A stretch of DNA of 54,395 nt from a virus: UHGV virus genome UHGV-0107341, one strand, 5' to 3'. Shown here one piece after another: positions 22,770 through 24,795 of the stretch. The notes under the pieces were generated by a model that was given only the letters and a program-made list of their open reading frames with translations, was not told the DNA's origin and searched no databases. The number at the start of each line of letters is the position of its first letter. The first letter of the stretch is position 1. The translations under genes and the position numbers were made by a program.

Positions 22770-22786
22770 AAATTTATTAGAGCAAT
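22770..22786 (-). promoter_or_regulatory. C1 operator-like site, perfect 17/17 (ATTGCTCTAATAAATTT), with overlapping inverted partial copy
   Basis: Exact consensus on minus strand; overlaps the last codons and stop of the methyltransferase; adjacent plus-strand ACACTAATAAATTT forms a palindromic pair. Confidence 0.55.
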
Positions 22787-24795
22787 ATTGCTATAACGTC
22801 ATGAGCAACACCTCGAGTGTCCCCCTTACAAGACACAGAACGTCTGGCAAAAAGAGGTTCCACTCTGAAGCCACTGTCCTGATAAAGTTCTCTGATGTTT
22901 GGCGCGCCACTGTTAGTAATGAGAACCTTTGCACCTCGGCGATGAGCATCCGTCAACAGAGACGCCAGGCGTTTTTGCTCTTCAAACTTAAAGTCATGAC
23001 CGGAATAGTTCGTGAATCCCTCTGTATTTGGGAGCGGTTCATACGGCGGATCGCAAAAGATGACATCTCCTTCTCCGGCAGCTTCAATCACCGCAGCAAA
23101 ATCACCACATACAAACTCAGAACGCCCTTCCGCACCAAGGAAGGCTTCCATCTCCTGCAATGGGAAATACGGAGTTTTATACTTCCCATAACCGACATTG
23201 AACTCACCGGCTTGGTTGTAACGCGTCAATCCGTTAAAACAATGTCGGTTCAGGAACAAAAACGCCGCTGCGCGATGTAAATCATCATAGACTTGTTTGT
23301 TAAACGCATTCCGTACTGCCAGGTATCCTTCCTGCGTGTTGTAGTCCTGGAAGAAACGATGTGCCAGAGTGATAAGTGAATGCGCCTCGCGTTGCAGAGT
23401 CTTGTAAAAGTTAATCAGGTCAGCATTCACATCATTTAGCAGATTTTCCTGGTATCCGGCATTCATGAAGACAGCTCCGCCACCAACGAAAGGCTCAATC
23501 AGGCGCTTCCCTTCTGGCAAATAGCGAAAGATTTGTTCCAGAACACCAAATTTTCCACCAACCCATTTGAATATGGACCGTTCGAATTCTGCCGCTGGTT
23601 TAACTTTTCGCTCTTTTGTTTCACTCCCTTCCTTCTGCCGACATGCAGCCTTGGCAATCCGATCGCCAATCCAGCGCATTACTGGTATCGCCATACTATT
23701 GCCGATCGCTTTGTAACGCGGTCCGTCAGCTGCAAGCATCGCGGCCTCTTCTTCGCTCAAATCAGGATAGTTTTTGCGAAGGTATGCCAGTTCATCTGAA
23801 GAAACTTTTTTACGCTTTTCCGTAGGGATCAATGTATGTCCATCAGGAAAACCTTGCAACCTTTCACATTCGACAGGGATAAGACGGCGCATTCTACCGT
23901 CGACGAGCAATACAATTGGTGCTTCATGGTTACATGTCAAAGTTGGTGCCGAATTATCGGTTTTTATCTCAGCCCCTCCTTGCCCATGTGCCATGGCAAC
24001 TATGTTTGTATCATCGCAAGATCTGATAGCGATGTTTGAAGTATATCTGGTAGTTTCCTTCCCCTCGCCTCTGCTCGGCGCAATATTCCGGCGCACGCCT
24101 TCGAACTCAAAAAGTACCGTTGCGGGATCGAGGTCTGTTCGAGCACTTGCGACAACAAACACGCGTCGGCGTCGTTGTGCCACTCCGAAGTATTGGGCAT
24201 CAAGGATTCTCCAGGCCACCTTTCGCTGCGGTCCATAAATACAACCACACTGCGGCCACTTTGGAGCATGGCAACCGGTTTTGCCATCCCACCGCCAGAA
24301 CGCGTTACTTTTTCCTGATTCAGGTCGATCACCTGGTTCAAATGGCGCATCTTCTCCAGCCAATCCGGCAAGGAAACATCCGAAGGCGTTATCTGCCGAT
24401 GACAGGACTCCTGGGACATTTTCCCAGACGATAACTGTCGGTTTGAGGAAGGACTCAGACCGTTTGTCGTCAATTGCATTTGCAAGCTCCACATACTTCA
24501 AAGTTAGCGCGCCGCGTTCATCATCAAGCCCACCACGTAAGCCCGCGATACTGAATGCCTGACAAGGCGTACCCCCGACGAGCACATCAGGGGATTCGAT
24601 TTCCCCAGCCAGGACTTTTTTGGCAAGTTTTGTCATGTCGCCAAGGTTGGCGACATGGGGCCAGCGGTGCGCAAGAACGGCAGATGGAAAAGGCTCGATT
24701 TCAGCAAACCACGCCGGACGCATACCCAACGGTTCCCAGGCAATACTCGCGGCTTCAATTCCACTGCAAACAGATCCATAGCACAGCTCTTTCAC
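22777..24795 (-). CDS. dmt: bifunctional DNA methyltransferase: N-terminal C5-cytosine MTase fused to C-terminal Dam-like N6-adenine MTase
   Basis: N-half: [12 protein letters not shown] (PCQ motif IV), ENVPG (motif VI). C-half: [14 protein letters not shown] (Dam motif I-like) and FCDPPYEP (DPPY motif IV). Confidence 0.8.

Follow-up and report, generated by a model that had tools for sequence, protein, structure and literature searches.

A P7-type dmt allele of a P1-like phage-plasmid: a fused C5-cytosine and Dam-family methyltransferase with a short target-recognition region

Phage-plasmids of the P1/P7 type (Punavirus) carry a gene for a solitary DNA methyltransferase, named dmt in P1 and dam in P7. 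The P1 GenBank record describes its Dmt as a [quoted passage not shown], and the P7 record annotates its Dam in like manner, also with a "perhaps" for the C5 activity. A review (PMC12707154) states that pac is methylated by the P1 Dam activity, that packaging requires this methylation, and that only in dam- hosts is dmt essential. A CRISPRi screen showed that P1 can do without the gene (PMC10695390). Among phage-borne cytosine methylases, the prophage m5C enzyme M.BatI is active with a CxGxxG version of motif I and a short recognition region (PMC8936443).

We analysed a dmt gene in the virus genome UHGV-0107341 (hereafter the window, the whole 54,395-nt stretch of DNA). An earlier note on this DNA, made from the letters alone, had proposed that one polypeptide joins an N-terminal C5-cytosine methyltransferase to a C-terminal Dam-type enzyme. 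This was borne out, as a single minus-strand ORF at 22777..24795 encodes 672 aa and carries both PF00145 and PF02086 (ORF list, translation and domain profiles), well outside what chance would produce. Such a fusion is real, and it is already known because the P1 and P7 records annotate the protein as bifunctional; being textbook P1 biology, it adds nothing new. Taking all lines of evidence together, we assign a probability of about 0.9 to the reading that the gene is the P1/P7 dmt and encodes a solitary bifunctional methylase that is C1-repressed, with a Dam half acting on GATC and a C5 half that is likely to be active.

The dmt gene and its operon

The dmt (P7 "dam") coding sequence (22777..24795, minus strand, 672 aa) was assigned by ORF call, domain profiles, megablast and protein alignment. 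In megablast comparisons with phage genomes, P7 dam and its counterparts in several P1-like phages match it at 96.7-97.3% nucleotide identity with 100% coverage, and P1 dmt aligns in two pieces that amount to 91% of the window gene length. The surrounding region (15-35 kb of the window) displays 99.3% identity to P1-like plasmids from Salmonella and E. coli. NCBI proteins only two or three residues away exist under the name "Dam family site-specific DNA-(adenine-N6)-methyltransferase", so that the naming of near-identical proteins refers to the Dam family only. Nucleotide identity, colinearity and synteny all place the gene in the P1/P7 dmt orthologue group, and on these grounds we identify it as the known dmt/dam of Punavirus phage-plasmids.

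The locus reproduces the P1 map in reverse orientation, with operator, uhr, hrdC, dmt, Oban and tRNA-Asn/Thr in the order found in P1 and P7. The first gene of the operon is uhr (25690..25974, minus strand), followed by hrdC (24792..25697, minus strand), a member of the RdgC family by profile match, which lies immediately upstream of dmt. The GTG start of dmt overlaps the TGA stop of hrdC (GTGA), and by sequence the two genes are translationally coupled. A C1 operator, Odmt/Op68 (26046-26062, minus strand; ATTGCTCTAATAAATAT, one mismatch to the consensus), overlaps the promoter Pdmt, which together with the operator occupies 26017..26062 on the minus strand (-35 TTGTTT at 26041-26046, -10 TACCAT at 26017-26022); both elements were positioned by correspondence to the P1 annotation. 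The gene is the last of the C1-repressed operon uhr-hrdC-dmt, which should be repressed in lysogens because the C1 operator lies over its promoter. Judging from this operator, the operon would be off in the lysogen and on after induction or infection, a scheme of C1 repression and derepression that we carry over from knowledge of P1.

At the other end of the gene lies Oban, a divalent C1 operator (22759..22786, listed without strand) that controls the downstream tRNA/ban operon. Its perfect half-site (22770-22786) covers the last dmt codons and the stop codon, so that the final stretch of the dmt coding sequence also serves as a binding site for the repressor. The tRNA-Asn and tRNA-Thr genes (21948-22101) are located downstream of dmt. 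An Rfam scan of 20.5-26.2 kb recovered these two tRNAs only, and no DicF-like match at gathering score. The genes upfC to upfA, and then oriR, lie on the other side of the operon.

Similar signals occur elsewhere in the window. Near-consensus C1 operators, each with one mismatch, are found on the minus strand at 6571-6587, 41001-41017 and 42672-42688. Three plus-strand sites, at 14082-14100, 33117-33135 and 52463-52481, fit the late-promoter pattern of P1, a AAGTGACT/AAGTTACT box together with a -10, and these matches probably correspond to late promoters of neighbouring morphogenesis operons.

The two methyltransferase halves

The C-terminal half (aa 405-672; 22780..23583, minus strand) is a Dam-family N6-adenine methyltransferase domain of the alpha class (D12), connected to the N-terminal half by a charged linker (23584..23640, minus strand) visible in the protein alignment and the translation. 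It matches Pfam PF02086 (D12) over aa 411-644 with an E-value of 1.8e-57 (195.4 bits against a cutoff of 22) and the NCBIfam profile dam TIGR00571 with 252.6 bits (cutoff 114.85). These scores, together with the presence of FxGxG and DPPY in the alpha order, place it in the alpha-class Dam family. The profile of the host Dam equivalog (NF008152) gives 246.2 bits and its cutoff of 441 is not reached. The Dam half of Dmt is a member of the Dam family and not an orthologue of the host enzyme. Residues 405-670 could be aligned over their whole length with structures of E. coli Dam (E-value 3e-58). Identity to Dam is found at K9, N120, L122, R124 and Y138, residues whose roles in the E. coli enzyme were reportedly described by Horton and colleagues in 2006. 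The alignment also displays the differences Y119F, P134G and R137K, which are common to P1 Dmt. A KWVGGK motif of this half is located at 23551-23568 (minus strand). A412V, in what is otherwise KWAGGK, was considered as a private mutation of the window allele and rejected, since three database proteins have it in common.

GATC adenine methylation has been shown for the P1 enzyme, and at ~98% identity the Dam half of the window protein can be strongly inferred to do the same. With this domain, pac cleavage, packaging and other steps that require GATC methylation would no longer depend on host Dam. A search of the window recovered no pac site and no TGATCA/G cluster.

The N-terminal C5-cytosine methyltransferase domain (aa 1-385; 23641..24795, minus strand) matches Pfam PF00145 (C-5 cytosine DNA methylase) with an E-value of 2.4e-35 (122.9 bits, cutoff 22) and NCBIfam dcm TIGR00675 with 112.9 bits (cutoff 100.65). 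Aligned to M.HhaI, it presents all the catalytic motifs, on the minus strand: motif IV PCQ with catalytic Cys78 (24559-24567), motif VI ENV (24415-24423), motif VIII QRRRR, which fits QxRxR (aa 207-211; 24163-24177), motif IX (aa 303-318; 23842-23889) and motif X GNS with its conserved GN (23695-23703). The motifs that the earlier note had named in the two halves could be located by translation at aa 77-79 (PCQ), aa 125-127 (ENV), aa 436-441 (Dam motif I, FVGGGA; 23473-23490, minus strand) and aa 582-585 (DPPY; 23041-23052, minus strand). A loss of catalytic residues, which would have spoken against that note, was looked for in the alignments to M.HhaI and Dam, and the catalytic motifs proved intact in both halves.

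Motif I of the C5 half, VCSGIEAA (24748-24771, minus strand), departs from the FxGxG AdoMet-binding loop, with the canonical F and the second G missing. CSGIEAA or CSGIESA is kept in all proteins possessing an N-terminus among the 120 best family matches, down to ~50% identity, solitary enzymes included. In comparisons with five alleles, dN/dS was mostly 0.06-0.21 for the C5 half and 0.09-0.12 for the Dam half, with one C5 segment reaching 0.40 against SJ46; these values rest on small substitution counts. With the same reservation as to small counts, a dN/dS of about 0.1 shows purifying selection on both halves.

An AlphaFold model of the N-terminal domain built on a 30-sequence alignment has a confident core, and pLDDT is below 50 in the recognition region and the catalytic loop. 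The modelled core resembles M.HhaI and DNMT3 in Foldseek, at the level of the generic C5 methyltransferase fold only. Between motifs VI and VIII we also observed an insertion (aa 147-192; 24220-24357, minus strand), ~20 aa beyond most relatives, which contains a Cys/His cluster (C175, H176, C183 and C185) and beta strands predicted with high confidence.

No report of m5C production by a Dmt allele turned up in the searchable literature, the GenBank notes saying "perhaps", and our literature search found no methylomes of P1-like elements. Judged by its motifs, the C5 domain at the N-terminus has the look of an intact enzyme. It would most likely place m5C on a short sequence other than the target of the P1 allele, and such a mark on DNA that is replicating or has been packaged might protect it pre-emptively from m5C-sensitive restriction when a new host is entered. 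An anti-restriction role of the C5 half is plausible.

The variable recognition region, its modules and the intein alleles

P7 Dam (AAQ07538, AF503408) is of the same allele type, being colinear with the window protein, equal in length (672 aa) and 96% identical to it (96.7% at the nucleotide level), with the same short recognition region, operon and flanking C1 operators. The two alleles differ by scattered point differences only. P1 Dmt (YP_006537, 754 aa) occupies the same locus and is 97-100% identical outside the variable region. A contrast in domain order between the window protein and P1 Dmt had been suspected, and it does not exist: the C5 domain is N-terminal and the Dam domain C-terminal in both, as indicated by the protein alignment and by the P1 GenBank note ("region of aa 8-132 similar to C5-cytosine specific DNA..."). 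The difference resides between motifs VIII and IX, which are separated by 173 aa in P1 Dmt as compared to 91 aa in the window protein, the two sequences being unrelated from residue 241 on. Since the recognition regions are unrelated, any m5C target of the window enzyme should differ from that of P1. Over the first 240 codons, the window gene has no synonymous differences from P1 and 13 from P7; its variable region is of the P7 type, and its 3' part is equidistant from P1 and P7. Because the first 240 codons match P1 and not P7 synonymously, the window allele is a recombinant mosaic. In the P1 reference dmt we further noted a G74W substitution four residues before the catalytic Cys (L001:4220-4222), a position occupied by Gly in all 116 other family proteins examined; it may represent damage to the C5 half in a laboratory strain.

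The variable target-recognition region (91 aa; 23890..24162, minus strand), delimited by alignments to the other alleles, is the sole part of the window Dmt that diverges from P1 Dmt. Its first ~29 residues are kept across alleles, its P7-type-specific part comprises aa 241-302 (23890-24075, minus strand), and it holds a single module, which we call b, with a TL core. Residues 232-293 have a pLDDT below 50 in the AlphaFold model. The distance of 91 aa between motifs VIII and IX is the shortest among 120 relatives. A protein search with 66 aa of the recognition region alone returned three fragments and was uninformative. Relatives located beside named endonucleases were also sought as a means of predicting the m5C target, and all contexts examined were orphan phage or prophage loci.

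Across the family, the stretch from motif VIII to motif IX is a mosaic built from at least 11 short modules, which are combined in 40 or more ways, and nine modules contain a (P/H)TL core as in the recognition loop of M.HhaI. P1-like plasmids have at least three of these arrangements: b in the window and P7, i-f-g in P1 and h-b-d-k in SJ46. Two or more modules in tandem would be expected of a multispecific enzyme; SJ46 and many relatives have two to six, and the window allele has only one. Among PLSDB plasmids, 184 carry the P7-type recognition region, 257 the P1 type and 15-51 the SJ46 type. This mosaic may mean that the Dmt family includes multispecific enzymes like that of Bacillus phage SPR.

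Other alleles are interrupted within the C5 half. In the dmt genes of RCS47 (L004:1732-2754) and of the P1 isolate OP279344 (L005), a 341-aa insertion lies exactly before the catalytic Cys of motif IV, with borders GTP/CFTAG...VVHN/CQAFS. It features a Cys1, a TxxH and two LAGLIDADG motifs and matches the Pfam profiles LAGLIDADG_3 and Hint_2 above cutoff; on the strength of the Hint and LAGLIDADG matches we regard it as a canonical intein. In PLSDB, 133 plasmids carry this dmt intein. The window allele lacks it, with an uninterrupted GTPCQAFS, and the equivalent of the homing site is at 24562-24567.

More distant elements display variations on the same pairing of methylases. A distant P1-like element with a 63%-identical Dmt encodes the C5-adenine fusion after an RdgC gene (L008:5115-8049). 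An integrative prophage has the C5 family fused to another adenine-methylase family, PF05869, and the RdgC gene is absent (L009:6001-7944). In another phage the C5 methylase is unfused and follows RdgC and an N6_N4 methylase (L010:2615-6260). The pairing of C5 and adenine methylases thus recurs in all three, with RdgC alongside in the first and the third.

These comparisons led us to a tentative proposal, to which we give somewhat less than even odds: the C5 half would belong to an enterobacterial phage m5C family with interchangeable TL-core modules, in which about a third of the alleles have a homing intein, and the window gene would represent the minimal form, with a single specificity, of an anti-restriction methylase that diversifies and is in part multispecific. 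If true, the SPR/phi3T enzymes of Bacillus phages would have in this family their Gram-negative counterpart. In the searchable literature on P1-like elements, neither the module variation nor such a counterpart is described. Two comparative papers on P1-like plasmids mention neither dmt variation nor an intein, and no Dmt intein was found in our literature search; the module and intein polymorphism of the related alleles is apparently undescribed. Having the smallest recognition region in the family, the window allele is the simplest construct for the m5C question, and a handy test case for whether Dmt makes m5C and in which sequence. The P1, P7 and SJ46 alleles, which differ only in the recognition region, form a natural swap series for specificity, restriction protection and McrBC sensitivity.

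Alternative readings and comparison with known systems

The C5 half might instead be a catalytically dead relic, or a mere DNA-binding or scaffold domain, with Dmt working solely as a Dam enzyme. Such a loss of function would be in line with a motif I devoid of the canonical F and second G, with a recognition region that is the shortest in the family and poorly modelled, and with the silence of the searchable literature on m5C made by Dmt; the P1 reference moreover grows normally despite its unique G74W, and the NCBI protein name refers to the Dam family only. We nevertheless consider it fairly unlikely, as the catalytic motifs are all intact and dN/dS is ~0.1, equal to that of the Dam half. 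The unusual motif I is found in every relative with an N-terminus, solitary enzymes too, M.BatI provides a precedent of activity with such a motif I (PMC8936443), and several in-frame alleles of the recognition region are maintained. That Dmt could be the modification half of a restriction-modification system is hardly credible, even though both domains match Type II methyltransferase profiles. The absence of an adjacent cognate endonuclease, already remarked upon in the earlier note, was confirmed: the neighbours are hrdC, the C1 operators and the tRNA-Asn/Thr genes. Moreover, synteny is unchanged in P1, P7 and the 63%-identical relative, and the best PADLOC match is "orphan methyltransferase".

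Two further alternatives concern the timing and the products of dmt expression. The same note had suggested that the enzyme methylates five GATC sites at the origin, and keeping these sites methylated in the lysogen could be conceived as the main task of Dmt. Five GATC are indeed found at 28314-28370, beside a DnaA box and 3.5 kb from dmt, and the P1 and P7 records label the oriR GATC as Dam sites. Methylation of oriR in the lysogen is, however, unlikely since a C1 operator lies across the promoter of the dmt operon and the gene is non-essential (PMC10695390); host Dam is available in lysogens, and the documented need for the P1 activity is pac cleavage in dam- hosts (PMC12707154). We consequently judge this to be very improbable as the main role of Dmt. 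Around 28299-28404, oriR has its five GATC sites at 28314, 28327, 28349, 28360 and 28367 and a sixth at 28404, and the spacing of the five is slightly unlike that of the P1 annotation. A Dam-only product, on the other hand, is conceivable from an LPdam2-like box and Met353 with its GAAGAGG: an early full-length fusion would be made from Pdmt and a late Dam-only protein from an internal late promoter. The 19 nt of the promoter-like site inside dmt (23789..23807, minus strand; AAGTTTCTTCAGATGAACT, a weak match) are identical to the "predicted late promoter LPdam2" of P7, and the -22 box agrees with that of LPdar at 8/9 positions. Met353 (23737-23739) is in frame, with the Shine-Dalgarno sequence GAAGAGG 5 nt upstream, and the phrog_56 profile alignment begins at residue 353. 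The -10 (TGAACT) is nonetheless poor, ~2 such patterns are expected by chance per window of comparable size, and the P1 record carries no annotation of this site, so that we consider two products decidedly unlikely. Our preferred reading remains a C1-repressed dmt encoding one bifunctional methylase with a likely-active C5 half.

Compared with characterized enzymes, the C5 half of the window protein shares with M.HhaI the motif order I-IV-VI-VIII-recognition region-IX-X and a TL dipeptide in the recognition loop. Its recognition region of 91 aa is similar in size to that of M.HhaI, which is ~106 aa by our count. With M.BatI it has in common a Cys in place of the Phe of motif I, both enzymes being phage-borne orphans. 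It differs from M.HhaI and M.BatI in a motif I, CSGIEA, that is neither FxGxG nor CxGxxG, and in the 20-aa family-specific insertion between motifs VI and VIII. The Dam half resembles E. coli Dam and DpnM in its full-length alignment, its DPPY and FxGxG motifs and the conservation of most DNA-contact residues. In contrast to these enzymes, it is fused to a second enzyme, phage-regulated, and below the equivalog cutoff (246 vs 441 bits).

The multispecific C5 methyltransferases of Bacillus phages have an established layout of tandem TL modules. In SPR, phi3T, rho11s and H2 these modules are located between motifs VIII and IX, as they are in the C5 relatives of the window enzyme. The window allele differs in carrying a single module, and multispecificity in its family is putative.
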